In this document: positions 514 through 18,543 of the stretch, in pieces
Layout of the letters: each line of letters starts with the position of its first letter
Position numbering within the stretch: the first letter of the stretch is position 1
From: a virus
Lineage: Duplodnaviria > Heunggongvirae > Uroviricota > Caudoviricetes
DNA: 30,859 nucleotides
Direction: 5' to 3' (one strand)
IMG/VR virus record: IMGVR_UViG_2740892488_000014
Made by a program: the position numbers and the translations under genes
Notes under the pieces: generated by a model
Told to the model about the DNA's origin: nothing
Seen by the model: the letters and a program-made list of their open reading frames with translations, nothing else
Database searches by the model: none

Positions 514-1784
514 CTCGGTGGCCAGTTTTTGTTGACCACTTCAATCACAGCCTGTAAGGGCAATGGCGAGTAAGAGTACTGAGTATTTTAATCTCATGAA
601 TTCCCTTTAGAGTAAGGATTGGTTTTTAAGACGCGGTCTGTAATCAGTCCCGAGAGCTACAGTAAACAACGCTGAGCACTGAACGCATCACAGGTAAGGT
701 AAAAGGTGATATCGGCAAAGGCTGTGAAACCTTTAATTCAACAGATGGGAACGGTATGCGCAGGATCCTGTAACGACGCTCCCAAAACCGGAAACCTGTA
801 AGGCATGTTTTCGCTGCTGAACTTAATATACGAACCTGCACTATCATGAACATATTTTATATCGTTATACCCCGAGTGATTGTGCCCGGCAATGGATAGT
901 GTCCTGGAGGAACTATTTCTACTGTAAAAGGTAGATATTTAATTTCAGTTTTGAATTATTCCCTGCTGTTAATAACAATGGCTGTATATGGCACCGAGTA
1001 GGCATTTTTTCGCTTACTGAAGGGCAGCTGTGAGCGAGGAACAGACTTTCCCTACTTCGTTGAGAGTACACCTAGTACAATCAAGGCTAAATGATAAAAA
1101 TATACAAAATATCATATTTATGATATATATAATGGCATTAATCTTATTCTTGGATTACGTTGAAAGGGTAATATTATATTTGTGTAACATAGTTTAGATA
1201 ACAATGCCGTTATGGGGGGGGAAAGACATTTCAACATATTAGCTTTGTATCTAACGCTCATGTAGATCTCGATTTTGAACTTAAAGAACAATTATTTTTT
1301 AGAGAGCAAGGTATTTTTGGGGAACAAAAACATAAAGTAATGGAGAGAGGAGAATGTATCAAAAAATCATCGATTTAATTTAGATTGTCCGTATAGTTGG
1401 GGGTAAGTCGAATCGCTGGGCTACATGGAATATTGTGTCAAGTAAAAATATATTTCAATCTTGCAATAACCGATTGTTGAAAATAATGTCAAATCTTAAT
1501 GGTGAATGGGGAGAATATAATAAACATGAGTCGATATTATGCAAATGGATTTAAATATTTTATACCCGAAGACATAGGGTTTCGAGAGTTCGATGAGACT
1601 ACTTTGAATGCTTTCGAATTTGCTGGCTAAAACATATAGGTTATATCTTACATCTGTTTGTAATGGAGCGTAGATGCGACAAGCTACACCATAATAATCA
1701 TATTATGATATATTGTTAAGTTGTTATGGCATTAAATAAAATTATGTCATTTTGTTAACCAAGCAAGAATCAAAGGACTTTTAG

Positions 1785-2099
1785 ATGGGTACGGCATTAA
1801 TTTCAAGCTTTATTAGTGGTGCAATAGCTATAATCTCTATTGCTATATCTACTTATAATCAGAATAGAATAAACAAGCTCAATGAATCACTGGATGTAAG
1901 GAGAAAACATCAGTACTATATTGAACCGTTAATTCGCTCAGCTTCAGACTTACAAAGCCGTATTTATAATATATTAGAATTGGGGTTCATTGAAGAGTTT
2001 TATCATAATGGGAATAAGCGCCAACAAGATTATGTTATCAACAATACTGTTTTTTCTTTTTTTCCCAGTTTTTTGCATGGACAGAAGCTGCCCGCATAG
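1785..2099 (+). CDS. hypothetical small protein with N-terminal hydrophobic helix (AT-rich islet)
   Basis: 104-aa ORF with AAGGA Shine-Dalgarno about 8 nt upstream of the ATG; N-terminus ISSFISGAIAIISIAIS is a predicted transmembrane segment; no recognisable family. Confidence 0.3.
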   Translation: MGTALISSFISGAIAIISIAISTYNQNRINKLNESLDVRRKHQYYIEPLIRSASDLQSRIYNILELGFIEEFYHNGNKRQQDYVINNTVFSFFPSFLHGQKLPA

Positions 2100-2136
2100 A
2101 CATTCAATACCTTAGCCTAGAAAAAAAATAAAAAAA

Positions 2137-2352
2137 ATGAGGGAGTTTATTAGATTACAGAACAATATTAACTCATTAATCCAAACAGACGTCTTTGGTC
2201 AGTATTTTATGTTTTTCATAGGAGAGCAGAGAGCTATTGCAGAAAAGATGCTGATATCAACAGATACTGGATTTGATTGCATAGGTTACGGCAGTTTCAC
2301 AAAGGAAAATTGCTTTATCAATGAGCCATTTTTTTTTAGATTTAAACAATGA
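2137..2352 (+). CDS. hypothetical small protein (AT-rich islet)
   Basis: 71-aa ORF co-directional with 1785-2099, followed by a 41-codon ORF (2364-2486) and then the hairpin at 2673-2706; the ATG sits in an A-run with no clear RBS. Confidence 0.2.
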   Translation: MREFIRLQNNINSLIQTDVFGQYFMFFIGEQRAIAEKMLISTDTGFDCIGYGSFTKENCFINEPFFFRFKQ

Positions 2353-2672
2353 AGTGATAAATATGACAAGAGATATCGGAATTTATAAAGAAAGGCTAAT
2401 CAGAATACAGCACGCGTTAATCGATTTAATTAATTTTCTTGATCCTGGCATGATTCGATTTGACGGAAAAAAATATGGAAAAATATAACCCAGATGATTC
2501 GTATCAAGGTAAGTTGCTATATGTATCAATTTAATTATGGTTGGGTGAAATTTATGTTAATAGTAGCGGAGGGTTAGTTAAAATATGCTCTCAGTGATTT
2601 TTGGATAGTTCTTTTATTTATCATTGAAAGTAAATATGTATAGCTTCAAGATTTACAAGTGAATCTGTTTAT

Positions 2673-2706
2673 TGACAGTCCGCTTATGGCACAGAGCGGA
2701 CTGTCA
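2673..2706 (+). terminator. intrinsic-terminator-like hairpin closing the plus-strand small-ORF cluster
   Basis: Perfect 11-bp inverted repeat TGACAGTCCGC / GCGGACTGTCA with a 12-nt loop, followed by TATTAAATTT. Confidence 0.4.
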
Positions 2707-2904
2707 TATTAAATTTGGCTCCACGCCATAGATGTGTCAGCTCATATCTTATCTAATACACACAATAACTTTCTCATTCTTGGAGAATTATTTTTTTAAG
2801 GGTAGGTGTTGACGTTAGAGCAAAAGAATGGTGATTTTTTTGATGTGTATTACGTTGGAACTGATGGGAATAACTATCTGTTTTCAACGCACTGCTAATT
2901 TATC

Positions 2905-2926
2905 AAGGCCCTTTGATCAGGGCCTT
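2905..2926 (-). terminator. terminator-like hairpin downstream of the minus-strand ImmA/membrane-protein operon
   Basis: 8-bp stem AAGGCCCT / AGGGCCTT with a 6-nt loop, 25 nt beyond the stop of the 2951-3557 gene. Confidence 0.35.
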
Positions 2927-2950
2927 CGAAAGACTGTTGGACCGAGAGAG

Positions 2951-3557
2951 TTACTTGCGTTTAAAAAGGTATTTTGTCACGACCAGCACGAGGCCGAATA
3001 CCTCTGTCAAAGTACCGCCCATGTACAACTGTAGTGTTAAATCCTCAAATTCCAGCTTACCTGCGCCGTCGGCAATAAATACACCATTCATTATCAGAAG
3101 TTGGAAAGCAAGGATAATCAGGAACCATTTCCCGTATCGTTTTTTTAGAGCGATTTCTGCTTCAAAATCTTTGTTGTTGAGTTGTTTGCGCTCATGCTCG
3201 GTATCAAGTGAATTCACCTGTTTCACAGATGTGAACTCGGTCAAGATTTTACTCTCAGTACGGGTGACTTGTTGAGAGGGTGTAGCAGTTGGAATTCTTT
3301 TGCTAGACGCAGCTACAGCCATTTTGCGAGCTTCGGCAGCTCTTTTTCTGGCTATTCCGCGAATACGGACAGCCGTTTTTTTTGGGGGCGTGCGAAACCT
3401 TTGGCTGAGGTGAAGCTTCGTCAGGAGACTGAACCGGAGTTTCATCGTCCTCCGGCTCAACCTCTTCTGCTAACTGACGGTGTAGGTTGAGGGAATCCTT
3501 CAGTCTGCGTGCTACTTCCTGTTTGAAACGGCTGTTAAAATCGTCATCCGATGGCAT
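2951..3557 (-). CDS. hypothetical membrane protein (acidic N-terminal region, two C-terminal TM helices); frame change at a homopolymer
   Basis: Two overlapping minus-strand ORFs (3303-3557 and 2951-3460) switch frame at the T8 run 3376-3383; the upstream part of one and the downstream part of the other read as protein, the remainders as junk. C-terminal hydrophobic stretches WFLIILAFQLLIMNGVFIA and LTEVFGLVLVVTKYLF. Starts 9 nt after the ImmA stop. Confidence 0.4.
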
Positions 3558-3566
3558 TTTAAAGCG

Positions 3567-4056
3567 TTACCCCAACCTCAAGTTCTTTAAACGATAAGTC
3601 ATCGCATCGTCAGATACGCCAAAATAATGCGCCATTATATAACTTGGTTGACCGTCAGCGTGCAGTTTTCTGACCTCATCTACCGGCATCAGAAGTTCTG
3701 CTGCGAACTTGTTTGCAAAAATTTCATCAGGATGCGTTCCGGCGCTTGCGGTTTCGCCACGTAAATCAACGTACTCATATTCATCGCTATGCGATGCTTG
3801 CCGGGCGATGTAATGCCCCAACTCATGCCCACATGAAAAAACGTTGACGAACTTTGTTGTCATCACTGTTTAGAAAGATCGCTGGATCTTGATCTTTTTG
3901 TTTAATCAGTGCGCCAGAAACTTTCCCAGGAAGATCGGTAATAAAAACATCTAATCCCATGTCGTGAGCAATTTTCGCTGGATCAACAGGGAAACCACGC
4001 CCGCACCAGAACGTGTCCAGCACTCGCCGGGCGTGCTCTCTTGGGTTGGTAGCCAT
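3567..4056 (-). CDS. ImmA/IrrE-family (COG2856-like) HExxH metallopeptidase; frame change at a homopolymer
   Basis: HELGH zinc-binding motif followed by …EIFANKFAAELLMP…, typical of ImmA/IrrE peptidases. Two ORFs (3823-4056 and 3567-3866) join across the A6 run 3836-3841; removing one base gives a continuous ~163-aa protein. GGAGGAG Shine-Dalgarno upstream of the 4056 start. Confidence 0.6.
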
Positions 4057-4130
4057 AGCTCCTCCAGTTACTGCATTACGATTATTGGTTGAAATATAGA
4101 CAGCATGTTCCGTACCACATTCCTGTAAAA

Positions 4131-4145
4131 GTGCAAATTCTGCAC
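4131..4145. promoter_or_regulatory. palindromic operator-like site GTGCAAATTCTGCAC upstream of the ImmA-like gene
   Basis: 5-bp inverted arms GTGCA/TGCAC around a 5-bp spacer, about 75-90 bp upstream of the ImmA start; 12 of 15 positions identical to the site at 4897-4911. Confidence 0.35.
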
Positions 4146-4432
4146 TTCTGGTACGATATTAACTGTTAGTAGTAAAGTCTTCCAGATAAATCACTTTAAA
4201 ATCTTGTGAATTGCTTGCTTTTTACGCTGTATTGTGGATGGTTCAATGTTTCCAGTAAAAACATACATGATAATCATGAGTTTAGTGTTTTTTTAGGCGT
4301 CTATATGTTTCTGGAAAATACAGGTCTAACCTGATCTTATCGTTGAGATTTTTTGTACTCAGTATGCGTGAACGATTCGACCAGGTGACTGTGTACGTGA
4401 AGAAGACCGCCCTTAATATTTTAAATGTGCAA

Positions 4433-4448
4433 CCCCTCAGAAGAGGGG
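4433..4448 (-). terminator. terminator-like hairpin after the small HTH-like ORF
   Basis: CCCCTC-agaa-GAGGGG stem-loop directly downstream of the stop at 4455, then a T-rich stretch on the minus strand. Confidence 0.4.
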
Positions 4449-4454
4449 CTACTC

Positions 4455-4688
4455 TCACTTCTGCAGTATCTCGCCAATACCTGCCAGATTCTCGTCCATC
4501 TTGTCACCGTTTTCGATAAGGATGGAGTTGAGCCGATTCAGTTGCATAGCAATTTCAAGTTTGATTAAGGTATCCACCGATACACCAGTTTCTTTTGCTA
4601 ACTTAGTAAGAGCCGCAGCTCGATTGGCTAAATTAAAATCATCGAACTCATAACGACTTCTGCACGGCTGGTTGCCTAACGTACCCAT
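4455..4688 (-). CDS. small putative DNA-binding protein (helix-turn-helix-like)
   Basis: 77-aa ORF; segment AAALTKLAKETGVSVDTLIKLE looks like a helix-turn-helix; own terminator; divergent from the 4933 gene. Confidence 0.35.
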   Translation of the reverse strand: MGTLGNQPCRSRYEFDDFNLANRAAALTKLAKETGVSVDTLIKLEIAMQLNRLNSILIENGDKMDENLAGIGEILQK

Positions 4689-4896
4689 AGTGATTCCTCA
4701 TGATATAAAGACCCAACAATATAAATTACCAGGCACATCATAAGATAGGGTTCCAGCCCATATTTTCAAATATTTGCAAGTATCACCGTTCAGTCTAAAA
4801 AGTTGGATGATGATTTAACGAGCCATAACAAAACCCTGCCTCGGAGGTTTTTTTCTTTTTTATAGAACTCAGCGGCGTGAAAACGAATAATAAATT

Positions 4897-4911
4897 GTGC
4901 AAATAGTGCAG
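4897..4911. promoter_or_regulatory. second copy of the operator-like motif (GTGCAAATAGTGCAG) upstream of the 4933 gene
   Basis: Shares GTGCAAAT plus TGCA at the same spacing with 4131-4145; lies 22-36 bp upstream of the ATG at 4933. Confidence 0.35.
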
Positions 4912-4932
4912 TTTTTATTATTCGAGGTAATT

Positions 4933-5574
4933 ATGAAAACCTTCTATGAGGACTGGCCTGAAACTTTCGTTAGCCGGTTAGATATGTTACGGGCGTTGGA
5001 TGATCGCGGTTCGACCCGGAGGCTCTATCTTGAACGGACCGGGGCAATATTTGACGCTCTGGCAGAAGAGATACGTACAGTCGTTGCCGGGCATCCTGAA
5101 ATCGACGTGAGTGAACTTGATATCGGGCCGCTGTATCGCTATTACAAACGTGGAGAAAAGGGGAATCCGCTGGCTGACTTACTTATTGAGTTGGCTCCAC
5201 CAACTTGTGAACGGGTTCGTATATCTCCTGAAGTGTACATAATCCCGTATCTGTTTTTTGCACTGTTGATAGCGCAAGGCGCTGACAACGATGCCCGCGA
5301 TTTTTTCAATATGATGATGCGACCGTTAATCATCGCCTACCGTTTCAAACAACTGGCGCGATACCTGGGAACAAAGGGCGGAGGACGACCACAGCACAGA
5401 TTAAAAAGCGAAGCCATTGAACTGGCTGATCGTTTTTTTACTGAAAACCCGACAGCGCCATTATCGCGTGGCGTGCAATACATATCCGGTATTTTTGTGG
5501 CGAAATACTCTGACCCACCTGCAGCGTCGACGATTAGAAAATGGTTAATTCCAATTTACAGGAGTGATAAATAA
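4933..5574 (+). CDS. hypothetical protein, no family recognised
   Basis: ATG at 4933 with GAGGT Shine-Dalgarno 4 nt upstream (preferred over the GTG at 4897); 213 codons; typical enterobacterial composition; terminator-like hairpin follows. Confidence 0.5.
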   Translation: MKTFYEDWPETFVSRLDMLRALDDRGSTRRLYLERTGAIFDALAEEIRTVVAGHPEIDVSELDIGPLYRYYKRGEKGNPLADLLIELAPPTCERVRISPEVYIIPYLFFALLIAQGADNDARDFFNMMMRPLIIAYRFKQLARYLGTKGGGRPQHRLKSEAIELADRFFTENPTAPLSRGVQYISGIFVAKYSDPPAASTIRKWLIPIYRSDK

Positions 5575-5581
5575 TGACCAT

Positions 5582-5610
5582 AAACGGTTTAATCCCCTAT
5601 AAAACCGTTT
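5582..5610 (+). terminator. terminator-like hairpin after the 4933-5574 gene
   Basis: 9-bp stem AAACGGTTT / AAACCGTTT with an 11-nt loop, followed by AATAAAATT. Confidence 0.3.
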
Positions 5611-5691
5611 AATAAAATTCACGACGTGAATATAATTGTTCATTATTCCCTCATTGTATTTGGCGTTATGACAAATGCCATAAAATACTGT

Positions 5692-5699
5692 ATAAATAT
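5692..5699. repeat. left copy of the 8-bp target-site duplication ATAAATAT
   Basis: Identical 8-mer directly abuts both termini of the element (5692-5699 and 7585-7592). Confidence 0.75.
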
Positions 5700-5727
5700 G
5701 GGTCTTCCCCGATCATGGTGGGAAGAC

Positions 5728-6948
5728 TCAGTACGCCATATTCAGTTTCCCATAGTGGAACATAACTCCCAGTTTAAAGCGTTCCCGGTTTCGGTATCCC
5801 CTGGCCTTTATCCTCAGCAGTCTGATCTTGCTGTTCAGCGCCTCCGCATTTCCATTCGAGACGCGATGACGCATTGCATTCAGTATTCCGTATAACCGTT
5901 TTTTAATGGTTTTCGCTGCGTTTTTCATCATCGGCACATCACATTCAGACGCCAGCGATATCCACTGCAACCAGTCATTCCTGCGTTCTGTGCTCCAGGG
6001 GCGATCCCAGATATTTTTTGCCAGCTCTTTCAGTGTCCAGCACTGGCTTGTCTGTTGCATCTGTTCCCGCAACCACATCAGCTTTTCCTGCCGGGACTCA
6101 GTCATCCATTTGTCGCTGTACTGCCACAGGAAGCGGGTACCTTTGGCCTGACGACGACTTTCAACAGGGAGGTGCGGATGTTCATTCTGGCGGGTTTTAT
6201 CAACCACTTCGCCCAGTTGCTTCGCCACATGGAAGCGATCGAAGGCGATTTTCTCGACCGCATTGGGTAAATGGATACGCGCTGCTCTTATATAGCCCGC
6301 ATTCATGTCCATCGACAGTGTTTTGATGGCCAACAACTGACTGTCAGTAAGCGAACGGAGATAGCTGGCAAGACTCTCTGTGCCACGATCATCGGTTAAT
6401 GCCAGTGCCCGCCCGTCGCGATCAGATACCACGGTTATATACCTATGCCCTTTTTTAAAGGCGACTTCGTCTACATTCATATGACGCACTGATAAAGGCT
6501 TTTTAATCCGCGACAGGCCTCGCTTAACCGCGCGGGTCATGATGCCGTCAACGGCATTCCAGCTAAGTTTAAGTTGTTTTCTGACCGCATCAACGGTGCT
6601 GATTTTAAGCCATGAGAGCACGAACGATTCGAACAGCAGAGTGTACCGACTGCCGGAACCTGCCCACGGTACAGGCAGAGTCTGGCAGCCATGCTCCGGG
6701 CACATAACGCGGGGAACATCGGCTTCTACTAATGTCATGAACTGGCAGGTATCAAGGTGGCGCCATTTACGATGTCGGTGATCGTGAACAGAACAGGATT
6801 TCCTGCAGGTCGGACAGGTTAACTGAGTATTTTCAGCAATTCCGACTGTAACAGTAACGGAACCTGCATTTTCATCGAGGGTAAGGGATTTAACCTGCCA
6901 TGGTGCAGTCAGGTTAAGGATATGGGCATAGAGGGATTTTTCGTCCAT
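5728..6948 (-). CDS. ISL3-family transposase
   Basis: 406-aa ORF with an N-terminal Cys/His cluster (CPTC…C…H) and central/C-terminal region (…VDEVAFKKGHRYITVVSD…FDRFHVAKQL…) matching ISL3 transposase architecture. Confidence 0.85.
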   Translation of the reverse strand: MDEKSLYAHILNLTAPWQVKSLTLDENAGSVTVTVGIAENTQLTCPTCRKSCSVHDHRHRKWRHLDTCQFMTLVEADVPRVMCPEHGCQTLPVPWAGSGSRYTLLFESFVLSWLKISTVDAVRKQLKLSWNAVDGIMTRAVKRGLSRIKKPLSVRHMNVDEVAFKKGHRYITVVSDRDGRALALTDDRGTESLASYLRSLTDSQLLAIKTLSMDMNAGYIRAARIHLPNAVEKIAFDRFHVAKQLGEVVDKTRQNEHPHLPVESRRQAKGTRFLWQYSDKWMTESRQEKLMWLREQMQQTSQCWTLKELAKNIWDRPWSTERRNDWLQWISLASECDVPMMKNAAKTIKKRLYGILNAMRHRVSNGNAEALNSKIRLLRIKARGYRNRERFKLGVMFHYGKLNMAY

Positions 6949-6966
6949 ATAATTTCATTCTGAAGC

Positions 6967-7485
6967 TTACTTTAAACTGATATTATTATTTTTTGCCCAC
7001 TTTCTTAATCTTCCATTAGCGTTGGCGTAAGGCGAAGATGTGTTAAATGAGATCATTCTCCCCATCGTCCATTTTGTGTACCATGGTCTTCCATACAAAA
7101 TATCATCGGTACGATCATTAATAAGGTTCACAATCTCATTTTTTACAGTCTGAAGTTCAGCTACTAACAACTCATAACTTAACTCACTGTAATCTGAGTA
7201 AAATTTTTGAGCAAGAAGGCCAAGCTGATTCCATTTATAGCCAGTTTCCGGAAAATCGACAGGCAGACCTTTAGCATCAGAAGCGATCCACTTTACAACA
7301 AGAGCATTCCATCCAAGCAGATACGAAACGAGATCACGAACACTCATCTCCGTTCCTTTGGCGTGTCCGTCCATTGATTTATCTGAAGTAATTTCTGGTG
7401 GGATTGTGTTGAGGTAACTAATTAATTTACTAAAATTTTTATCAATAGCTAAAAGCAGTTCAGCTTTTGTTTGCGGCACACTCAT
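6967..7485 (-). CDS. ClbS/DfsB-like (DUF1706) four-helix-bundle protein, passenger inside the ISL3 element
   Basis: 172-aa ORF; motifs GHAKGT, LVSYLLGW, FPETGYKWN, LAQKFY, YGRPWYTKWTMGRMI and FNTSSPY match my recollection of this family; lies between the transposase gene and the right inverted repeat. Confidence 0.5.
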   Translation of the reverse strand: MSVPQTKAELLLAIDKNFSKLISYLNTIPPEITSDKSMDGHAKGTEMSVRDLVSYLLGWNALVVKWIASDAKGLPVDFPETGYKWNQLGLLAQKFYSDYSELSYELLVAELQTVKNEIVNLINDRTDDILYGRPWYTKWTMGRMISFNTSSPYANANGRLRKWAKNNNISLK

Positions 7486-7584
7486 AAGAATTCCCTCTCA
7501 TGTAAAAAGAGACACCATAAAGGTACTGTGTGGTGTTTGAAAATCGCTCAATTATGTACCACCCACCACAACAGGGGAAGACCC

Positions 7585-7592
7585 ATAAATAT
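7585..7592. repeat. right copy of the 8-bp target-site duplication ATAAATAT
   Basis: Identical to 5692-5699, directly outside the right inverted repeat. Confidence 0.75.
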
Positions 7593-7596
7593 ACAG
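7585..7596. promoter_or_regulatory. right half of a LexA (SOS) box split by the ISL3 insertion
   Basis: Removing the element and one duplication copy restores tACTGTATAAATATACAGgt, i.e. CTGT-N8-ACAG, about 25 bp upstream of the ATG at 7619; the left half is 5688-5699. Confidence 0.55.
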
Positions 7597-7618
7597 GTTG
7601 TGGCATTGGGGGGAAGAC

Positions 7619-7798
7619 ATGAATATTCAAGAATCTATAGGCGAACTACCGGAAACATGCCGGGCTGTTATCAAGCGTAAGGACGGACACATCGTTGGTG
7701 TGCGTGTTCTGACCGATGATGAGCGGATTGCCAGCCTGATGGCGTTTCTCGAGTTGGCAGAAATAGCTGGATATACTATTACACCCCCTGACGCGTAA
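7619..7798 (+). CDS. small hypothetical phage protein, first gene downstream of the disrupted SOS box
   Basis: 59 codons from ATG 7619, preceded by GGGGGGAAGA Shine-Dalgarno; the ORF track begins at an upstream TTG (7598). Confidence 0.4.
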   Translation: MNIQESIGELPETCRAVIKRKDGHIVGVRVLTDDERIASLMAFLELAEIAGYTITPPDA

Positions 7799-7875
7799 AA
7801 CACGGTATAATATCGGTGCTGGATTGAACACCCGGCATCATTTTCTGAACACTGCCGCGCCACCTGGAGTTAACC

Positions 7876-8472
7876 ATGGCGCAGCATTCATTTATCAGGG
7901 TATCCGGCGGTTCGCTAATACCCGCGACACCAGACACGCAACGCTGGTTGACTGAACGAGTCAAACCAGGTGCTGTTGTGTATGCAGATTTCAAACAGGC
8001 GCGTAATCCCGCGTTTCATCGTAAATTTTTCTCACTTCTCAACCTGGGCTTTGATTACTGGCATCCGTCCGGAGGGGCTATTTCTCCTGCGGAGCGCGAA
8101 CTGGTTCACGGCTACGTTAAGTTACTGGCGTATTACGGTGGACACGGTGATGTCATGGCAGAGCTGGCTGATCAGTATCTTCTCGATGAGTCGGAAAAGC
8201 GCGCGGGGAGTATCAGTGCGGTGAAGTCGTTCGAGGCGTTTCGCGCATGGGCGATTATGGAAGCTGGGTTTTATGACGTTCATCAGATGCCAGACGGCAG
8301 TTTGATGCGCGTACCTCGTTCAATCTCGTTTGCAGCGATGGACGATCTTGAGTTCGGTCAACTGTATTCAGCCGTTTTAGATGTGCTGTGGAATTATATT
8401 TTGTTCCGCACATTTGCCTCTCAGGAGGCCGCTGAAAATGCCGCCGCGCAGCTGCTGGATTACACATCATGA
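7876..8472 (+). CDS. lambdoid nin-region protein, YbcN/DUF1367-like
   Basis: 198-aa ORF with GGAG Shine-Dalgarno; stop overlaps the next start (ATGA); position and sequence recall prophage YbcN-type proteins. Confidence 0.55.
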   Translation: MAQHSFIRVSGGSLIPATPDTQRWLTERVKPGAVVYADFKQARNPAFHRKFFSLLNLGFDYWHPSGGAISPAERELVHGYVKLLAYYGGHGDVMAELADQYLLDESEKRAGSISAVKSFEAFRAWAIMEAGFYDVHQMPDGSLMRVPRSISFAAMDDLEFGQLYSAVLDVLWNYILFRTFASQEAAENAAAQLLDYTS

Positions 8473-8762
8473 AAAAAATCGACCTGAGAAAAGCTGCACG
8501 CAGTCGCGCTTGTACTGTGCGTATCCCCGGTGTGTGCAATCACAATCCTGAAACCAGCGTACTGGCTCATTATCGTCTCGCCGGAACGTGCGGCACAGCC
8601 ATCAAACCTCACGATATGCAGGGCGCTATCGCCTGCAGTGCGTGTCACGATGCCATCGACGGACGTACAAAAACGGATTACGAGCACGACTCATTGTTGT
8701 TGATGCACGCTGAGGGAGTTTTCAGAACACTGGCTATCTGGCGCGATGAGGAGTTTATCTGA
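8469..8762 (+). CDS. YbcO/DUF1364-like putative nuclease (lambdoid nin region)
   Basis: 97-aa ORF; Cys-rich signature RIPGVCNHNPETSVLAHYRL…ACSACHDAIDG matches the YbcO family as I recall it. Confidence 0.7.
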   Translation: MKKIDLRKAARSRACTVRIPGVCNHNPETSVLAHYRLAGTCGTAIKPHDMQGAIACSACHDAIDGRTKTDYEHDSLLLMHAEGVFRTLAIWRDEEFI

Positions 8763-9433
8763 TGAGTAACGAGTATTTATTGGAATATACCCGCATAAAA
8801 CTGCGCGCTGCATTGCGGGATTTGTCTGGTGGTTCTAAGGGGCAACTGGAAGCATTGTGTGAGCACCCACCGGCAGACAAAAACGCATACCCACGCAAAC
8901 ATATTCACCGTGTGCAGCTGGAGGACCGGACCGTTGATGCTCTGGTTACGCCAGTTTACGCTCTGGAAAGTTTCAGCAGACGTCGCCCCGCGCCGCCGAT
9001 GAGTGATTTTGAATTTGCTGATTCATCCTGGCGGCGTTCTGTGAACTCGCTGGATGCAAGTCAGCAAGCGTGGTTGCGTTATTGCTACGGTGGTAACCTG
9101 GCATTCAAACACCAAACAGCTATTTGTGAGGCTGTCTGGAGTCGCTATAAAGGAAACATCCCCGCGTCAACTCAGAGAAAAGTAGTTAAGCGCCTGCTTT
9201 CGTTGGTGTGGTTGTCCGTGCAGGCGGTCGCAGCAGCAAATAAACGCGAGGATTTTAAGGAGATGGCCGGATCTACCCTAGCAGGAATGCTGTCGGTTTC
9301 TCGTTCCACCTGGTGCGAAACATACTCCCTGCACTGGGTAGGAATGAAAGAGGCGGTGAGAGCACTTGATGAAGTGGCACTTCTTGCAACTTTGCATCAT
9401 TATCAGAACCATTTAGACGACGTTTGCGTATAA
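8762..9433 (+). CDS. putative late-gene antiterminator (Q-like), called by position
   Basis: 223-aa ORF directly after the nin-type genes and before a promoter-like region and the lysis cassette; no sequence-level match to lambda Q is claimed. Confidence 0.35.
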   Translation: MSNEYLLEYTRIKLRAALRDLSGGSKGQLEALCEHPPADKNAYPRKHIHRVQLEDRTVDALVTPVYALESFSRRRPAPPMSDFEFADSSWRRSVNSLDASQQAWLRYCYGGNLAFKHQTAICEAVWSRYKGNIPASTQRKVVKRLLSLVWLSVQAVAAANKREDFKEMAGSTLAGMLSVSRSTWCETYSLHWVGMKEAVRALDEVALLATLHHYQNHLDDVCV

Positions 9434-9436
9434 TGC

Positions 9437-9493
9437 TTGCAAAAACGAACAAAATAGGCCATATTTGACGCTAATTTGGTATGTTGCCAAATT
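9437..9493 (+). promoter_or_regulatory. candidate late promoter region (pR'-like) between the Q-like gene and the lysis genes
   Basis: Two overlapping sigma70-like candidates: TTGCAA-18-ATATTT and ATATTTGACG-17-CAAATT; the second resembles lambda pR' (ATTTGACT…TAAATT) as recalled. Confidence 0.25.
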
Positions 9494-9545
9494 TCTAAGA
9501 ACCTCGCCACGGCGGGGTTTTGTCGTTTCTGAATCAGGAAAAATC

Positions 9546-9929
9546 ATGTCTGAACCTCTAACCGCTGGCGTTGCTGCTGGCTCGGCGGGGGTGACGTTTG
9601 CTGCGTTATTTCCTGAGGCAACACCTGCAGTGATGATCTGTGCGCTGGCAGGCGCAGCTCTCTATGTGTTGTCGTCCGGGCAGCATCGATTCTGGAAGCA
9701 GGTTATTTTCGCACTCATTTCGTTTGTTGGCGGTGTGTATTGCGCTGAGACAGCGTCAGCCATCATTACCGGTATTCTGAACGCGGTGCTGAGTCACCTG
9801 AACCCTCCCGTAACAGTAAAAGTCTCTCCCGCCATTGGTGCACTGGTTGCATCAGTAATCAGCGTTACATCACTGTTGCGGATCATGTCACAAGCTCGTT
9901 TATGGAAATCAGATAAGGGGATGAAATAA
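9546..9929 (+). CDS. putative holin
   Basis: 127 codons from ATG 9546 (AGGA Shine-Dalgarno); several hydrophobic segments; first gene of the lysis cassette. Confidence 0.5.
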   Translation: MSEPLTAGVAAGSAGVTFAALFPEATPAVMICALAGAALYVLSSGQHRFWKQVIFALISFVGGVYCAETASAIITGILNAVLSHLNPPVTVKVSPAIGALVASVISVTSLLRIMSQARLWKSDKGMK

Positions 9930-10189
9930 TGACCCTGCACTCTGTCCTCATCAATGCCAATGCAATTATTTGTCTGATGTTGGCACTACGGTTGATGTTT
10001 TTTCAAAAAACAGGCCGCTATCGTTTTTTTCATCTCACTAACTGCTTACCTCGCGATTCTGTCTGCTGCGTGGATAGCCCTACGAATTTTTTTACGGGAA
10101 ATATACGCAGGTTGATCCCGCAGAGTTCTTTCTCAACCTCACCATCTGTATTGCTGTCTGGCGGGCACGAGGGAATATTTCAAAAATAA
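9929..10189 (+). CDS. small membrane protein in the lysis cassette (possible holin partner)
   Basis: 86-aa ORF overlapping the holin stop; N-terminal hydrophobic helix AIICLMLALRLMFF; contains a T7 run, so its C-terminus is uncertain. Confidence 0.3.
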   Translation: MTLHSVLINANAIICLMLALRLMFFQKTGRYRFFHLTNCLPRDSVCCVDSPTNFFTGNIRRLIPQSSFSTSPSVLLSGGHEGIFQK

Positions 10190-10202
10190 CAGGAGACAGG
10201 TA

Positions 10203-10682
10203 ATGACGGATCCTAAATGGCTAATCGAGGCTCGAAAAAACCTCGGCATTCGGGAAATGAAAGGGAAGCAACATGCTGCAGAAATTGTGCAGTACTGGAA
10301 AGATATCAAACGCGGCGGCATTAAGGATGACGAAACACCGTGGTGCGCTGCTTTCACCGGGGCAATGCTGGAACGTGCGGGTATTCGCTCAACGCGTTTT
10401 GAGTCTGCGAATTCTTATCTCGATTGGGGTAATGAACTGAAGGAACCCGCCTATGGATGCATTGCTATTCTGTCTCGGTCTGGCGGTGGTCACGTCGGCT
10501 TTGTTGTCGGGAAAAATGCCGCCGGGGATTTAATGATTTTGGGGGGCAACCAGGCAGATGAAGTAAATATCAAAGCTTTTCCTCGTTCCCGCGTAACAGG
10601 CTACCGCTGGCCAGCAGGTCAAACGGATGTTCCACAATCACTTCCATTGGTGAATGCTGAGAAATCTATCTCAGAAGCGTAG
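10203..10682 (+). CDS. putative endolysin, cysteine-peptidase type (CHAP/NlpC-P60-like)
   Basis: 159-aa ORF after the holin genes with AGGAGA Shine-Dalgarno; conserved Cys (ETPWCAAF) and His (GGGHVGFV) spaced as in papain-fold cell-wall peptidases; no lysozyme or transglycosylase motifs. Confidence 0.5.
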   Translation: MTDPKWLIEARKNLGIREMKGKQHAAEIVQYWKDIKRGGIKDDETPWCAAFTGAMLERAGIRSTRFESANSYLDWGNELKEPAYGCIAILSRSGGGHVGFVVGKNAAGDLMILGGNQADEVNIKAFPRSRVTGYRWPAGQTDVPQSLPLVNAEKSISEA

Positions 10683-10689
10683 GTAAAAC

Positions 10690-10884
10690 GTGAAAAAACT
10701 TCTCTTAGCTGTCGCGTTCTTCACGCTGGCAGGCTGCACACATTCGACATACACCGAAGCGACTCGCGCTGACGGCAGCAGTATTAAACACGTGATGATC
10801 GCGCCGGGTACGAAGATTACTACTGCGAACGGTGGTTGTATTGATTCAACCGGGGCAGAGGCTTCATGCCTTGGTGGAAAATAG
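10690..10884 (+). CDS. small lipoprotein (LAGC lipobox) at the end of the lysis cassette
   Basis: 64 codons from GTG 10690; signal peptide plus LAGC lipobox; not proline-rich and has no C-terminal TM helix, so not a canonical spanin. Confidence 0.5.
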   Translation: MKKLLLAVAFFTLAGCTHSTYTEATRADGSSIKHVMIAPGTKITTANGGCIDSTGAEASCLGGK

Positions 10885-10943
10885 GGTAATTTACTTTAAC
10901 GAGAGGCCGCCTTTTTGTTTTAAGGCGGCACACATTCAACAGA

Positions 10944-11204
10944 TTAAGGTAACTGATTTGACCATTTTGTTGCGCGCCAGTTGTTCTGAACCATAATCTT
11001 CTGAAGTATCTCATCTGAAGGCTCTGCTTCGCCGCTTAGCCATTCTCTTAAAGTTGAACAATTTAGATAAGAGGAGTTCGCACGATAAAAAGATACGATG
11101 GCGTCCTCTGATAACTTCTCAGGAAACTTTTTTGGGTCAGCTTCTTTTAATATTACGCTCATTAAGGCTTCAATTTTTTCTCTGTTCATTTTTTGCGTTC
11201 TCAT
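10944..11204 (-). CDS. hypothetical protein, reverse-oriented moron between lysis and packaging genes
   Basis: 86-aa ORF on the opposite strand to all surrounding phage genes; locally lower G+C; no strong Shine-Dalgarno. Confidence 0.35.
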   Translation of the reverse strand: MRTQKMNREKIEALMSVILKEADPKKFPEKLSEDAIVSFYRANSSYLNCSTLREWLSGEAEPSDEILQKIMVQNNWRATKWSNQLP

Positions 11205-11557
11205 GGTTGTTGTTTTTCTGTAATGATATCAATAAGTTCAAGATATATACATATATGGAAAACTTGTTCGGTAGTCTATCGATACAGCACAAAAGGATGG
11301 CTCGCTGCCAAAGTGAAAGCTTACGCTGATAATCAGATACACAAAGCTGATGTATGCAAACAAGTACGCCGCGAGGCTACAGTTGAGTTTGATGAACCTG
11401 ATGCGAGCCCCTAATTCCTGTCCTGAAAGGGAGATAGCCCCCTGGTCGCGGGTCCTTTCCGAAATCCAAAACACCGAGGGTCGGTAGACGCGCAAAAACT
11501 CGCTCGTTTTTAGTATTTTTTCATTTTGGGTATTTCCGGTTCCGGTGAGGATTTTTA

Positions 11558-12124
11558 ATGGCAAGTCAGGCTGAGGTTGCAGCACATTTACTGCTATCTG
11601 ATCGTCGTCTGCGCGATCTCGCAAAACTTCCGGGAGCACCAGTCCCACAAGGACGTGGTGATTGGGAGCTAGACGCATGGCGCCATTTTTATATTCGTTA
11701 TCTCCGGAGCAATAGACGCGACACAACTAGTAATGACGAACCGGAAGCGGGGGACAATTCTCCCGAAAAAAATCGCGAGCAGTGGCTGAAAAATGAGGAA
11801 CGACAGGAGCGAATCCTGATGGCACGAGTAAAACGCCGCATTCTCGCTAAACGCTACGCGCCAATTGAATTAATTAGCGTCGCTGTATCTCGCGTCGCCG
11901 TTGAATTACGTACCCGCGTCGAGTCGTGGCCACCACGCCTGAAAAAGGTCTGGCCGGAGATGCCGCAAGAGGCGAGCAGTGTATTACGAGAGGAGCTGGC
12001 GATAGCCTTAAATGAGTTGTCAGACATACGAATCGACTTCAGCGATTACGATGTCAGCGATATCGAACGCGATCTCGACAGGGTTGAATCCCTTGCGCGT
12101 GACGATACCGATGACGGGTGTTGA
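11558..12124 (+). CDS. terminase small subunit (lambda Nu1-like)
   Basis: 188-aa ORF immediately upstream of and overlapping the large-subunit gene; layout resembles lambda Nu1. Confidence 0.65.
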   Translation: MASQAEVAAHLLLSDRRLRDLAKLPGAPVPQGRGDWELDAWRHFYIRYLRSNRRDTTSNDEPEAGDNSPEKNREQWLKNEERQERILMARVKRRILAKRYAPIELISVAVSRVAVELRTRVESWPPRLKKVWPEMPQEASSVLREELAIALNELSDIRIDFSDYDVSDIERDLDRVESLARDDTDDGC

Positions 12125-13974
12125 GTGGGCTGATAAATATTTTTATCTCCCTGAGGGCTCCAGCCACATCGCTGGGCACTGGACGACTCAGCCGGTCCAG
12201 GTAGTGATGCTCAATATGATGACGAACGACGCGATAAAAATCGTGTCTGTTCGCAAATCAGCTCGTCTCGGTTATACAAAAATACTCGTCGCGGCGCTGC
12301 TCTATTTCGCTGAGCACAAAAAACGTAGTGCCGTGGTCTATCAGCCTATCGATGACGAATCGGATGGATTTGTCGCCGACGAGGTTGACCCCGCTATCGC
12401 CGAAATGCCAGTGATTCAGAAAATTTTCCCCGACTGGGATAAAAGCAACGAGCGTAACAATCTCCAGCGTAAAGAAATGAGCGGCGCGATTCTTGATTTT
12501 CGCGGCGCGAGTGCACCAGGAAATTTCCGGCGACTAACGAAACAGGTTGTCGAGGGTGACGAAGTTGACGGCTGGCCGCTGGAAGTTGCCAAAAAAGGCA
12601 AAGGCGAGGGCTCGCCCATCGAACTGGCGCTCGTTCGAATTAAAGGGGCAGCGTACCCGAAGGCGATTTTTGGTTCGACGCCGACCGTTACCGGCAAAAG
12701 TCATATCGAAATGCTCGAAGACGCTGCCGATCTGACGTTTCGTTTTTACCTGACATGTCCGCATTGTGGCGAGGAGCAGGTCCTGGTATTTGGTTTCGAC
12801 GGTATCGAATACGGCCTCAAATGGGATAACAGCCTGCAGACCAATGAGGCGAAATCGTCGTCCGCGTATTACCAGTGCTGCCACTGCCCGGAACATTTTT
12901 TACTATCGCGATCTCGAAAAAATGGAGTTCGGGGGGCGCTGGATAGCCGAGGACTGCACCTGGACCCGAGACGGCATTCATTTTTTTGATCATGACGGTG
13001 GCGTCGTTCGCGCGCCGAAACACGCTGCGATCGTGATAAACGCCCTGTATTCACTAAACCTCGATGGATGGGGCGAGATTGTCAGCGAGTGGCTGAAAGC
13101 GAAAGGCGACCCGCTCAAGGAAAAGACGTTTCATAACACGACGCTCGGCGAACTCTGGAGCGACGTGGCCAGCGAGCAGCTGGAGCACGATATTCTGGTT
13201 AATCGCCGGGAAAAATACGCCAGCCAGGTTCCTGACGGTGTTGTTTATATAACCGGCGGCATCGACTCTCAGACGTCCGGGCGCTACGAGTGTTATGTGT
13301 GGGGCTGGGGAGCCGAGGAGGAGTGCTGGCTGATTGATAAAACAATCGTCCTCGGTCGCTACGACGAGGAGGACACGCTGCAGCGCGTCGACGGAGTGAT
13401 TCGCAAACAATACCGGCGCAGCGACGGGACCACAATCGGCGTCAGTCGCTGGGCGTGGGATACCGGTGGTATAGATGCGCAGGTCGTTTATAACCGCTCG
13501 CTGAAACTCGGTCCGCTGTGGGTCATTCCAATCAAGGGCGCGAGCTCATACGGCCAGCCGGTCGTAAATATGCCTCGTACCCGTAACGCGAATAAAGTGT
13601 ATTTGTCGTTGATTGGGACAGATACAGCGAAAGACCTGCTCGCAATGCGCCTGCAGCTGGAACCCGACTCCAAATCGGCGACACCAGGTGCGATTCATTT
13701 TCCCAACGACGACGAAATATTCAGCACGACAGAGGCAAAACAGCTCGTCTCCGAGGTTCTGATCCCGAAACTCATTAACGGTCGCGTCGTTTATCGTTGG
13801 GACAACCAGGGCCGGCGAAATGAGGCGCTCGACTGCTGGGTGTACGGACTGGCAGCGCTGCGTATCAGTAAAATTCGTTTCCAGCTCAATCTCGAGACGC
13901 TCGCTGAGCAACGGAAAAAATCACAAAACAAACTGTCTCTCGAGGAGATGGCCAGAATGCTCGGAGGGAGCTAA
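12012..13974 (+). CDS. terminase large subunit (lambda gpA-like); frame change at a T6 run
   Basis: N-terminal GVEWADKYFYLPEGS… and C-terminal …WTRDGIHFF…TTLGELWS…YITGGIDSQ…CYVWGWG…IPIKGAS…ALDCWVYGLAALRIS match lambda gpA; the two ORFs (12012-12989, 12766-13974) join if the T-run 12896-12901 has one more T. Start codon uncertain (12012, 12051 or 12111). Confidence 0.85.
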
Positions 13975-14207
13975 TGACGTCGCGCGAGGTTTTAACAGAA
14001 CGACTGCTGGAAGCGGAAATCGCTCTGCACAAATTATTAACGGGTAAATCGACCGTGTCGCTGTCTCACGGCGATTCAGCAGGAAATAACCGGAGCTATC
14101 AATACTCGCAGGCGAGTATTGAGCAGCTCCGAACGTACATTATCGAGCTGAAATCACAGCTCGGTCTGAGTACGGGACGCCGTCGGCCCGTGGGAGTTCG
14201 ATTATGA
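13974..14207 (+). CDS. head-tail joining protein (lambda gpW-like)
   Basis: 77-aa ORF with LHKLLTGK…QLRTYIIELKSQL, matching lambda W; ATGA overlap with the terminase stop. Confidence 0.8.
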   Translation: MTSREVLTERLLEAEIALHKLLTGKSTVSLSHGDSAGNNRSYQYSQASIEQLRTYIIELKSQLGLSTGRRRPVGVRL

Positions 14208-15778
14208 CTGCTCCGCAGCAGCTGCTCGGGCCTGACGGTAAAACGCCACTACGCCGTTACGCGGGGTATAACGGCGGCGGTCCCGGTTTCGGTGGCCAGC
14301 TGATTGACTGGAACGCACCACAGCAGAGCGCCGACGCAGCACTGTTGCCGAATTTTTATCGCGGTAACGCGCGAGCAGACGATCTCGTTCGCAATAACGG
14401 CGTCGCGTCGAACGCCGTGCAGCTGCACCAGGATCATATCGTCGGCAATCTGTTTAAGTTGAGTTATCGCCCTAACTGGCGTTACCTCGGCATATCTCGC
14501 GAGGACGCCAGGGCGCTGGCGCGTGACGTCGAGGTAGCGTGGACTGAATACGCCGAGGACCCTCACTGCACGATTGATATCGAGCGGAAACGGACGTTCA
14601 CAATGATGATCCGCGAGGGCGTGGCTACTCACGCTTTCAACGGTGAAACCTGCGTACAACCAGTCTGGGAGAGTAGTGCCGGCAGCGTTTTTCGGACGCG
14701 ATTCAAAATGGTCTCACCGAAACGGATTCGAAATCCGGGTTACGCAGCTGACACTCAATTTCGCCGCGCCGGTGTTGATATCGATAAAAACGGGGCCGCG
14801 GTCGGGTACTGGATAGCCGAGGATACTTACCCTCTCGGCGGAGTCGGTAAATGCCGGCGTATCCCAGCACAGCTCAGCAGCGGCAGACACGCATTCATCC
14901 ACATATTCGAGCCGCTCGAGGACGGACAGACCCGCGGGGACAATATTTTTTACAGCGTCATGGAGCGCCTGAAAATGCTCGACACACTGCAGCAAACACA
15001 ACTGCAGAGCGCCATTGTGAAGGCGATGTATGCCGCGACAATCGAATCAGAGCTCGACAGCCAGCAGGCGTTTGAATATATCGCCGGCGCGGGTACTGAT
15101 ATCGACTCGAACCCGCTGAATTCGTTTATTCAGAGTTACGTGACGTACTACAACGGCGCAAATATCAAGCTCGGTGGTGTGAAAGTTCCCCACCTGCATC
15201 CCGGCGACAAACTCAGTTTACAGACCGCTCAGAATGCTGATGCTGGTTTTAGTTCACTGGAAAAATCACTCCTGCGTTACGTTGCAGCTGGCGTTGGCGC
15301 GTCATACGAAGAACTTAGCCGGGACTACAGCCAGGTCAGTTACTCCAGCGCCCGGGCCAGTGCTAACGTCAGCTGGCGATTTTTCATGGGGCGTCGACGT
15401 TTTATCGCCGCGCGACAGGCGTCGCTGATGTTCTGCTGCTGGTTTGAAGAGGCGCTGGCACGCGGAATTATCACCCTGCCACGCTCAGCTGTCCGGTCGT
15501 TTTATGAGGCGCGGAACTCCTGGACGAACGCGCTCTGGATCGGCGCTGGTCGCATGGCGATTGATGGGCTGAAAGAGGTTCAGGAGAGCGCCATGCGCAT
15601 CACAACTGGCCTCAGCACGTATCAGAACGAACTGGCGCTGCAGGGACAGGATTACGAGGAGGTTATGGAGCAGCAGGAATACGAAATTCAGCGCCGGCGT
15701 GAAATGGGGCTGAGCGAACCGTCATGGTCTGTATCTCACCCCTCAAATACCAACGATAACGGCTGGGGAGGTAACTGA
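14204..15778 (+). CDS. portal protein (lambda gpB-like)
   Basis: 524-aa ORF with long conserved stretches (LLGPDG…RRYAGY…GFGGQL…LLPNF…RGNARADDLVRNNG…LHQDHIVG…) matching lambda B. Confidence 0.9.
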   Translation: MTAPQQLLGPDGKTPLRRYAGYNGGGPGFGGQLIDWNAPQQSADAALLPNFYRGNARADDLVRNNGVASNAVQLHQDHIVGNLFKLSYRPNWRYLGISREDARALARDVEVAWTEYAEDPHCTIDIERKRTFTMMIREGVATHAFNGETCVQPVWESSAGSVFRTRFKMVSPKRIRNPGYAADTQFRRAGVDIDKNGAAVGYWIAEDTYPLGGVGKCRRIPAQLSSGRHAFIHIFEPLEDGQTRGDNIFYSVMERLKMLDTLQQTQLQSAIVKAMYAATIESELDSQQAFEYIAGAGTDIDSNPLNSFIQSYVTYYNGANIKLGGVKVPHLHPGDKLSLQTAQNADAGFSSLEKSLLRYVAAGVGASYEELSRDYSQVSYSSARASANVSWRFFMGRRRFIAARQASLMFCCWFEEALARGIITLPRSAVRSFYEARNSWTNALWIGAGRMAIDGLKEVQESAMRITTGLSTYQNELALQGQDYEEVMEQQEYEIQRRREMGLSEPSWSVSHPSNTNDNGWGGN

Positions 15779-17415: not shown

Positions 17416-17473
17416 TAGCAAAAAACTCAAAACAAGCCGCCTCCGGGCGGTTTTTTTATAACAGGATATATAA

Positions 17474-18509: not shown

Positions 18510-18530
18510 GAGTCGAAAGGCTCTTTTTTG
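18509..18530 (+). terminator. possible partial terminator between the major capsid and FI-like genes
   Basis: AGAGTC-GAAA-GGCTCT stem with a GNRA-type tetraloop followed by TTTTTT, directly after the capsid stop codon. Confidence 0.3.
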
Positions 18531-18543
18531 TTAAGGAATCAAC

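Follow-up and report, generated by a model that had tools for sequence, protein, structure and literature searches.

A peptidase and membrane protein gene pair in a prophage of Escherichia coli ST131 as a probable RosmerTA-type toxin-antitoxin cassette

What does an ImmA/IrrE-like peptidase control when the gene next to it encodes a membrane protein and not an Xre-type repressor? The question is raised by a locus on the minus strand, positions 2951-4056, of the IMG/VR virus record IMGVR_UViG_2740892488_000014, of which the whole stretch of 30,859 nucleotides (nt) is referred to here as the window. An earlier note on this DNA described a peptidase gene at 3567-4056 with an HELGH motif, followed 9 nt later by a gene for a protein with an acidic, proline-rich N-terminal region and two C-terminal transmembrane (TM) helices, and proposed either a protease-gated membrane effector or a non-canonical induction module. 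We give a probability of about 70% to another reading, in which the two genes form a self-contained, mobile toxin-antitoxin or abortive-infection cassette of the RosmerTA type, a moron of a lambdoid prophage in E. coli sequence type 131 (ST131). The 162-amino-acid (aa) peptidase would be the antitoxin and the 201-aa membrane protein the toxin.

The link to RosmerTA runs through the peptidase. When it was compared with annotated phage genomes, the best matches outside E. coli were found in Gordonia phages, including Kita (44% identity, E 5e-31), and pairwise BLASTP against Kita gp32 gave 43% identity with an E-value of 1e-41. Gene 32 of Kita encodes a protein of 178 aa (YP_009301393.1) without a helix-turn-helix (HTH) domain and overlaps the start of gene 33, which encodes a protein of 119 aa (YP_009301394.1). 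Ernits et al. (2023, PMC10440598) validated these two proteins as the antitoxin RmrA(D25) and the toxin RmrT(D5). On the toxin side, the hidden Markov model of the two-TM family matches Kita RmrT(D5) at 45.3 bits, and hhalign of the membrane protein family against Kita RmrT gave a probability of 96.5% and an E-value of 7.4e-10 over 81 columns, which comprise the juxtamembrane helix and both TM helices. The Kita toxin was reachable only through the peptidase and the family profile, and a tblastn search of 50,697 phage genomes with the E. coli toxin returned no match. The Kita toxin causes immediate growth arrest and shuts down translation, transcription, and replication, and it depolarises and permeabilises the inner membrane of E. 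coli. Kita RmrA neutralises the toxin in part, and the native operon in E. coli protects against Bas54 and Bas59 (PMC10440598). By analogy, we infer that the E. coli pair would behave like the Kita pair.

The pairing of the two genes is far beyond chance. An orthologous peptidase of ~160 aa was found directly upstream and on the same strand in 54 of 54 independent loci that have a full-length homologue of the membrane protein, and the spacing is mostly a -1/-4 overlap or less than 10 nt. Loci with the pair were found in Klebsiella oxytoca, Serratia marcescens, a second E. coli type, Salmonella, and Plesiomonas. A scan with one genome per species identified the pair in 30 of 30 loci (phmmer E-values 1e-38 to 1e-114), from Pseudoalteromonas, Microbulbifer, Endozoicomonas, Gallionellaceae, Zoogloeaceae, Nitrospirae, Desulfobacteraceae, a Bacillota metagenome-assembled genome (MAG), and Elainellaceae cyanobacteria, and it is likewise present in each of the 15 IMG/VR contigs that encode a full-length homologue of the membrane protein. 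Two metagenomic contigs with remote members of the membrane protein family also carry the peptidase upstream, and when the search was started from the peptidase, a 56%-identical Pectobacterium peptidase was found to have the same membrane partner. The earlier note had allowed that the membrane protein might be a common prophage protein unrelated to the peptidase; in the loci compared here it is always peptidase-linked. No Xre or other repressor gene recurs beside the pair across the 54 loci, in agreement with the earlier observation that an Xre partner is missing, and a Pfam scan of 107 neighbour proteins from 21 non-enteric loci identified no recurrent third gene or HTH protein. The position of the cassette varies with the prophage. 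In ST131 it lies in the nin region, and in K. oxytoca and E. coli it lies in the gap that separates the attachment-site tRNA from the integrase gene. In Serratia it has Q on one side and the lysis genes on the other, and in Plesiomonas it is close to the immunity region. The pair is also found among housekeeping genes outside prophages. A mobile module of two genes that is small, closely coupled, and found in changing surroundings is what characterises a toxin-antitoxin system.

Related short peptidases are also found with other partners. In a Salmonella element that carries genes for Hok and MuF/LPD polyvalent proteins, a 54%-identical peptidase is followed by an overlapping ORF (open reading frame) for a soluble protein of 65 aa, MDMNNPGRKHRPLTNEEVDNIRNLV... 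(L047 4476-4700 / L048 2172-2369), a case of partner swapping and possibly a different toxin. Stand-alone M78 peptidases that are 31-45% identical were identified in the P2 variant OU784750.1, mycobacteriophage Che9c, Burkholderia phage Carl1, and Pseudoalteromonas phage ACA1 (L076-L079), where each precedes a different small protein with one or two TM helices that is outside the D5 family. These temperate phages have the genes at their genome ends or in accessory slots, and the ACA1 peptidase is annotated as an antirepressor. A peptidase with a small membrane protein thus appears to be a theme broader than the D5 family, and partner swapping of related short peptidases is consistent with antitoxin-hub behaviour as in NetFlax D25.

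Neither gene has an uninterrupted reading frame in the window sequence. The peptidase gene appears as overlapping minus-strand ORFs in different frames (4056..3823 and 3866..3567), as does the membrane protein gene (3557..3303 and 3460..2951). The single-base frame changes at homopolymers that had been noticed earlier are indeed present, at an A6 run and a T8 run, but they are very probably artefacts of sequencing or assembly and not biology. The two inserted bases are the only differences from the intact prophage of NZ_AP018784.2 across the cassette stretch, and over the 16.3 kb that can be aligned with this reference the window has 14 single-base indels as opposed to 2 substitutions. All 14 indels are in homopolymers, 13 of them +1 changes in A/T runs and one a -1 change in a G run, and they are spread over positions 544-18699 of the window. 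They also break a 232-aa gene into three pieces (1785-2488) and probably the terminase gene (~11558-13974), which appears as three overlapping ORFs. It is because all 14 indels are in homopolymers, with only two substitutions, that we call the frame changes artefacts, and the corrected proteins of 162 and 201 aa were therefore analysed. It could be argued that the cassette in this strain is dead and that both frameshifts are real, for example if the toxin was lost and the antitoxin then decayed, given that homopolymer slippage is a genuine mutational route too. We consider this very unlikely, as the indels also hit essential phage genes such as the terminase gene, the protein collection has truncated variants of both proteins (P0002, P0004, P0309, P0266) that resemble homopolymer errors of other error-prone assemblies, and both genes are annotated as intact in every complete genome listed, of the ~430 that carry the cassette. 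The strain itself presumably has an intact cassette, and 'pseudogenes' in the window should not be trusted before they are compared with references.

The corrected peptidase matches the Pfam family Peptidase_M78 (PF06114) at 7.7e-18 over residues 32-157 and PHROG 87 'metallo-protease' at 3.9e-30. Its best PADLOC match is capP (2.4e-25), which covers only positions 3-151 of the 242 in that profile, followed by the PADLOC RmrA models (best 5.8e-12), which are matched over their C-terminal peptidase part only. The AlphaFold2 (AF2) model is confident, with a mean predicted local distance difference test score (pLDDT) of 91.2 and a predicted template modelling score (pTM) of 0.87, and the nearest solved folds found with Foldseek are CapP (7T5T), IrrE/PprI (3DTE, 8SLN), and a M. 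tuberculosis Xre-peptidase regulator. An HExxH motif with a downstream Glu and an IrrE N-terminal-like fold, the features that define M78 peptidases, are all present. The HExxH...E site, whose completeness had been in question, is intact: among 60 orthologues H77, H81, and E111 are invariant and E78 is conserved in at least 90%, and the HExxH motif is kept in 31 of 32 loci. This strict conservation of the catalytic residues implies that proteolysis would be part of the control of the cassette. The sole exception among the 32 loci is an Elainellaceae cyanobacterium MAG (L038 1930-2469), in which the catalytic Glu is replaced (HQLGH) and which could be a copy in decay or a variant that only binds; two sister MAGs have HELGH. 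No N-terminal HTH was identified in Pfam searches of the peptidase, and there is no GAF domain; the chain ends at residue 162 after the peptidase domain and a short helical tail. The subfamily is uniform, as almost all of 126 cluster representatives at E <=1e-10 are 159-170 aa long.

The membrane protein matches no Pfam, NCBIfam, or PADLOC family, its single match being PHROG 5346, for which no function is assigned, and a Foldseek search of the Protein Data Bank with its model returned nothing. As the earlier note stated, the N-terminal third is acidic and proline-rich (net charge -5 over residues 1-60) and hydropathy places two TM helices at the C-terminus (TM1 ~144-164, TM2 ~174-197); coordinates and spacing agree as well, with 9 nt between the peptidase stop codon (3567-3569) and the start of the membrane protein gene at 3557. 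AlphaFold2 with 148 homologues predicted a confident helix at residues 4-32, disorder at 33-118, a long helix at 119-164, and a second helix at 172-197. The charge pattern (KKRYGK before TM1, an acidic connecting loop, and a KRK tail) predicts that both termini are in the cytosol, a topology in which ~140 residues, including the whole N-terminal region, would be cytoplasmic and within reach of the peptidase. Close homologues are limited to Enterobacterales; conserved in them are the N-terminal helix and the last 90 residues, and the linker between these has a length of ~10 to 130 residues. A profile search of 1.84 billion cluster representatives identified 700 clusters at E <=1e-3 and 184 at <=1e-10, and the remote members share the juxtamembrane helix and the two TM helices only. 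In an alignment of 29 sequences Y141, G164, E185, L197, and F198 are invariant and Q152 and N157 are nearly so; among 148 sequences L197 alone is strictly invariant and Y141, Q152, T182, E185, and F198 are conserved in at least 90%. The pattern of conservation therefore indicates that several of the polar residues within the bilayer are conserved. A similar short N-terminal helix is found in distant members and in Kita RmrT, and it may serve as a docking or recognition element for the peptidase. Apart from the complete genes, non-coding remnants of only the last ~26 toxin codons (the end of TM2, 77-92% identical) are found in many prophages that have no peptidase gene, including L001 8830-8907, IMG/VR contigs (L065-L073), E. 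coli E24377A, and others, and the ST131 prophage has one such remnant at a distance of 3.4 kb from its intact cassette. These remnants resemble scars left where recombination at the conserved 3' end of the gene removed or exchanged a cassette.

How such a pair would work can be sketched as follows. The cassette would be transcribed from its own leader, antisense to the phage nin-Q-lysis genes. The peptidase, an antitoxin of the RmrA type without HTH, would be made first, and its translation would be coupled to that of the toxin, whose C-terminal two-TM hairpin would, by homology, be the toxic part, with the polar residues Q152, N157, T182, and E185 in the bilayer. The peptidase would restrain the toxin through the ~140-residue cytoplasmic part, where the conserved N-terminal helix would be the handle and the variable disordered tether the likely cleavage substrate. 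A phage that disturbs the peptidase or its supply would free the toxin, the proton-motive force would collapse, and the infected cell would stop supporting phage growth, so that the lysogen population and the prophage would be protected. Cleavage of the toxin by the peptidase is plausible on these grounds; a complex of the Kita proteins could not be modelled (pDockQ 0.05), and this is in keeping with a short-lived contact of enzyme and substrate such as has been reported for CapP-CapH and IrrE-DdrO (PMC13228613). A more specific proposal, which is tentative and which we hold to be possible rather than likely, is that the HTH-less peptidase is a proteolytic antitoxin that docks on the N-terminal helix and continuously clips the disordered tether or marks the toxin for ClpXP/Lon, so that infection would be sensed as lost or inhibited protease activity. 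The toxin would then be neutralised by destruction and not by binding or transcriptional repression, and E185, Q152, and N157 would line a proton-conducting oligomeric channel. If this is true, it would be an enzymatic, toxin-cleaving mode of antitoxin action that is not yet demonstrated for RosmerTA. It would occur in ~8% of the complete genomes of E. coli, those of the ST131 lineage, and in no fewer than 700 protein clusters from different phyla.

The same two proteins could be arranged the other way around, with the peptidase as the activator of a gasdermin-like effector: the N-terminal helix would auto-inhibit the membrane protein until a peptidase triggered by infection or DNA damage cuts the linker and frees a pore-forming hairpin. 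The anatomy, with a confident N-terminal helix, a long, variable, disordered linker, and a conserved TM hairpin, would suit inhibition by folding back and relief through a single cut. CapP and IrrE, the nearest relatives in structure, are proteases that a signal activates, and the strict conservation of the catalytic residues would be expected here too. Against this, the toxin of the validated Kita homologue is toxic alone and the peptidase lowers its toxicity, the order with the peptidase first and translational coupling fits an antitoxin, and the 162-aa peptidase has no GAF domain and hence no inter-domain groove for single-stranded DNA (ssDNA), which activates CapP and IrrE. A peptidase that activates an effector is accordingly disfavoured and we consider it unlikely; the protease-gated membrane effector of the earlier note survives in that a peptidase is coupled to a membrane effector, but the direction is probably reversed, as the Kita peptidase restrains its toxin. 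It is more improbable still that the peptidase belongs to an ImmA-type antirepressor or induction module, cleaving the repressor of the prophage or another one encoded elsewhere, with the membrane protein as an unrelated accessory (for example, for superinfection exclusion). ImmA of ICEBs1 is likewise a stand-alone M78 peptidase of ~170 aa, the annotators of ACA1 named the related gene 'antirepressor', and several copies of the cassette adjoin integrases. The lack of a recurrent repressor or HTH gene in the 54 loci, the four different positions in different prophages, and the copies among housekeeping genes all argue against an induction module, which the earlier note had offered as its second possibility; strict operon linkage with overlapping codons points to two proteins that work together, and the prophage has a separate cI/Cro-like region ~10 kb away.

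The reading as a RosmerTA-type cassette has points against it as well. The toxin is only a remote homologue of Kita RmrT, with 25% identity over 81 columns that are all in the juxtamembrane and TM part. None of the PADLOC models matches the membrane protein, the RmrA models among them are matched over their peptidase part only, and capP scores better. In the Kita system itself neutralisation is only partial and no stable complex was modelled (PMC10440598). In another Zn-peptidase system, PD-lambda-2, the peptidase-bearing component is itself toxic. Literature searches, whether with the accessions of the E. coli proteins or on M78 peptidases paired with membrane proteins, returned no paper on the E. 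coli pair.

The cassette is a regular part of one E. coli lineage. The 2.1-kb stretch 2700-4800 is present at at least 99% identity in 414 of 5,426 complete E. coli genomes, is chromosomal in all of them, and has carriers that include JJ1886 and many strains labelled O25b:H4-ST131. In NZ_AP018784.2 it is part of a lambdoid prophage with replication genes on one side and the genes for DUF1367, DUF1364, and the Q antiterminator on the other, and the prophage's own cI/Cro-like region is ~10 kb away from it. Three intact minus-strand genes are annotated there, encoding a 77-aa hypothetical protein, the 162-aa peptidase (WP_000224749.1, 'ImmA/IrrE family metallo-endopeptidase'), and the 201-aa membrane protein (WP_001138663.1, hypothetical protein). 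The features of the cassette are collected in Table 1. The pair has its own conserved leader of ~130 nt with an inverted repeat, and this leader is common to the Salmonella and E. whittamii copies (L009 4300-4502; L014 3300-3502); the outer arms of the repeat are kept, and the inner arms in Salmonella, although of another sequence, still form a hairpin. The repeat could be an operator or a regulatory hairpin of the 5' untranslated region. A scan called no consensus sigma-70 promoter upstream of the cassette, and a weak candidate, TGGAAG-17-TAATAT, was recognised by eye in the conserved leader. No LexA-box-like motif was seen on reading the leader, for which no dedicated search was made. The GC-rich hairpin downstream of the membrane protein gene is the likely terminator of the two-gene operon.

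Table 1. Coordinates of the features of the cassette in the window
Feature	Position	Strand	Basis or remarks
rmrA-like gene; stand-alone M78 (ImmA/IrrE) zinc peptidase, 162 aa after removing one base	3567..4056	-	Pfam, AF2, homology to Kita RmrA
HELGH codons, residues 77-81, zinc-binding/catalytic	3813..3827	-	Motif, orthologue alignment
E111 codon, third zinc ligand, DEIFAN helix	3723..3725	-	Invariant in 60 orthologues
A6 run	3836..3841	+ (run)	A5 in intact references; one extra base gives the apparent peptidase frameshift
rmrT-like gene; 201-aa membrane protein after removing one base	2951..3557	-	Homology to Kita RmrT(D5)
N-terminal amphipathic helix, predicted cytoplasmic, residues 4-32	3462..3548	-	AF2 pLDDT ~86-93 at residues 11-30; conserved L19, L23, R27
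Predicted disordered linker, acidic/Pro-rich then basic, residues 33-118	3203..3461	-	Hypervariable length and sequence among homologues
Juxtamembrane helix (LKKxY motif) into TM1, residues 119-164; TM1 ~144-164	3065..3202	-	Conserved Q152, N157
TM2, residues 174-197, motif LYMGGTLxEVFG...YLF	2966..3037	-	Most conserved part of family; E185 codon 3002-3004
T8 run	3376..3383	+ (run)	T7 in intact references; one extra base gives the apparent membrane-gene frameshift
Ribosome-binding region CTGGAGGAGCT	4057..4067	-	Abuts peptidase ATG; identical in K. oxytoca, E. coli, Salmonella, E. whittamii copies
Inverted repeat, nested: outer CGTACCA/TGGTACG, inner AGTGCA/TGCACT	4111..4155	-	Conserved leader; minimum free energy z -2.39
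GC-rich hairpin AAGGCCCTGATCAAAGGGCCTT	2905..2926	-	25 nt past membrane-gene stop; T-poor tail, not called by terminator scan

Upstream of the cassette, the ORF at 4455-4688 on the minus strand had been described as HTH-like and as standing behind its own terminator. It exists (77 aa, WP_000536919.1, PHROG 5550 (phrog_5550), no function assigned), with a hairpin at 4432-4449 on its 3' side and a terminator-like site at 4333-4321 in the terminator scan, but its HTH character is unsupported, as its only Pfam match is MerR at 0.13. It is confined to the ST131 prophage context and is missing at all other cassette loci, including the closest, that of E. whittamii. With no HTH signal and no counterpart at any other locus, it was rejected as a hidden Xre partner.

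On the other side, an AT-rich block (900-2700, 31-33% GC) adjoins the cassette and holds the 232-aa gene at 1785-2488 (+), which is intact as WP_000536231.1 (L001 11091-11789). Its product has an N-terminal TM segment, a weak PADLOC match to 'RTasTM' (DRT-associated TM protein, E 1.8e-5), and a match to PHROG 5606, function unassigned. No reverse transcriptase gene is adjacent, and the gene could be a further moron of the defence type. Compared with the reference prophage, the window also has a 1.9-kb insertion (5700-7584) that consists of an ISL3-family transposase gene at 5728-6948 (-) and a passenger-like DUF1706 gene at 6967-7485 (-). At the start of the window, positions 31-513 encode the C-terminal integrase-core part of an IS3-family transposase in place of the reference sequence upstream of 544.

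The arrangement itself is already known, as the combination of a Zn-peptidase antitoxin with a variable toxin, of D25:D5 type, is the RosmerTA architecture. What is new is a prophage cassette of this type that extends across ST131 and is missed by the PADLOC-DB 2.0.0 models, in which the toxin is unmatched and the RmrA models match only in part. The D5-type toxin family also proves to be large (at least 700 clusters at 50% identity) and almost always paired with one uniform short peptidase subfamily, and its toxins have an anatomy of a docking-type N-terminal helix, a variable tether, and conserved polar TM residues. Pandemic E. coli ST131 carries the cassette on a prophage almost universally; by analogy with Kita, a likely anti-phage, abortive-infection determinant would be added to this lineage, which would bear on the host range in phage therapy. 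The subfamily is a clean model for how a peptidase without a DNA-binding domain controls its toxin in RosmerTA.

It remains to place the pair among known systems. RosmerTA was defined by Millman et al. 2022 as a Zn-peptidase antitoxin with a toxin of unknown function, and the RmrA peptidase domain was later described as a hub antitoxin with many toxin partners in which an HTH is 'often' present (PMC10440598). The E. coli pair shares with canonical RosmerTA a COG2856/M78 Zn-peptidase next to a toxin of a variable family, toxin-antitoxin behaviour and phage defence being the expected function, but a typical RmrA has 360-400 aa with an N-terminal Xre HTH before the peptidase, which is absent here. 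Of the features of RosmerTA, an M78-type antitoxin and an adjacent, co-oriented toxin gene homologous to a validated RmrT were found and the N-terminal Xre HTH was not; the validated Kita RmrA does not have it either, and the HTH is therefore not defining for RosmerTA. The Kita pair is the closest parallel, with the same peptidase-first order, coupled or overlapping genes, an HTH-less M78 peptidase (178 vs 162 aa), a temperate phage as carrier, and a toxin whose N-terminal part is cytoplasmic and whose C-terminal part is a membrane hairpin of two helices. The pairs differ in that the E. coli toxin has a disordered insert of ~85 residues and strongly conserved Q/N/E residues in the TM helices, and in that one is carried by an Enterobacterales prophage and the other by an actinobacteriophage; the activity of the Kita pair is known, while that of the E. 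coli pair is predicted from its sequence.

CapP/CapH and IrrE/DdrO, pairs of a protease and a repressor that respond to DNA damage, share the peptidase fold, CapP being the best match in PADLOC, PDB-sequence, and Foldseek searches, and have a substrate encoded next door. In CapP and IrrE the HTH and GAF domains form the ssDNA-binding groove behind activation, and many CapP proteins have a cysteine-switch loop (PMC13228613). The window peptidase has neither of these domains and a target-normalised Foldseek TM-score of 0.40, and ssDNA sensing as in CapP was rejected as its mechanism because the GAF domain is missing. Nor does the pair have a CapH-type HTH repressor partner or a downstream regulated immune operon. 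ImmA/ImmR of ICEBs1 and phage antirepressor modules resemble it in having a short stand-alone M78 peptidase on a mobile element, but the substrate of ImmA is the adjacent Xre-type repressor ImmR, whereas the invariant neighbour of the window peptidase is a two-TM protein. PanA-PanT systems, such as that of B. choladocola PanT-D11, also have a small membrane-depolarising toxin, and in PanT-D11 an N-terminal unstructured region and a short helix before the TM segment are the predicted antitoxin contact; their antitoxin has a Panacea (DUF4065) domain and no peptidase. The locus is thus neither a CapP/CapH module, having no GAF domain, CapH, or regulated operon, nor an ImmA/ImmR module, having no repressor partner, and on the criteria tested it would belong to RosmerTA, as a member of the HTH-less D25:D5 type.

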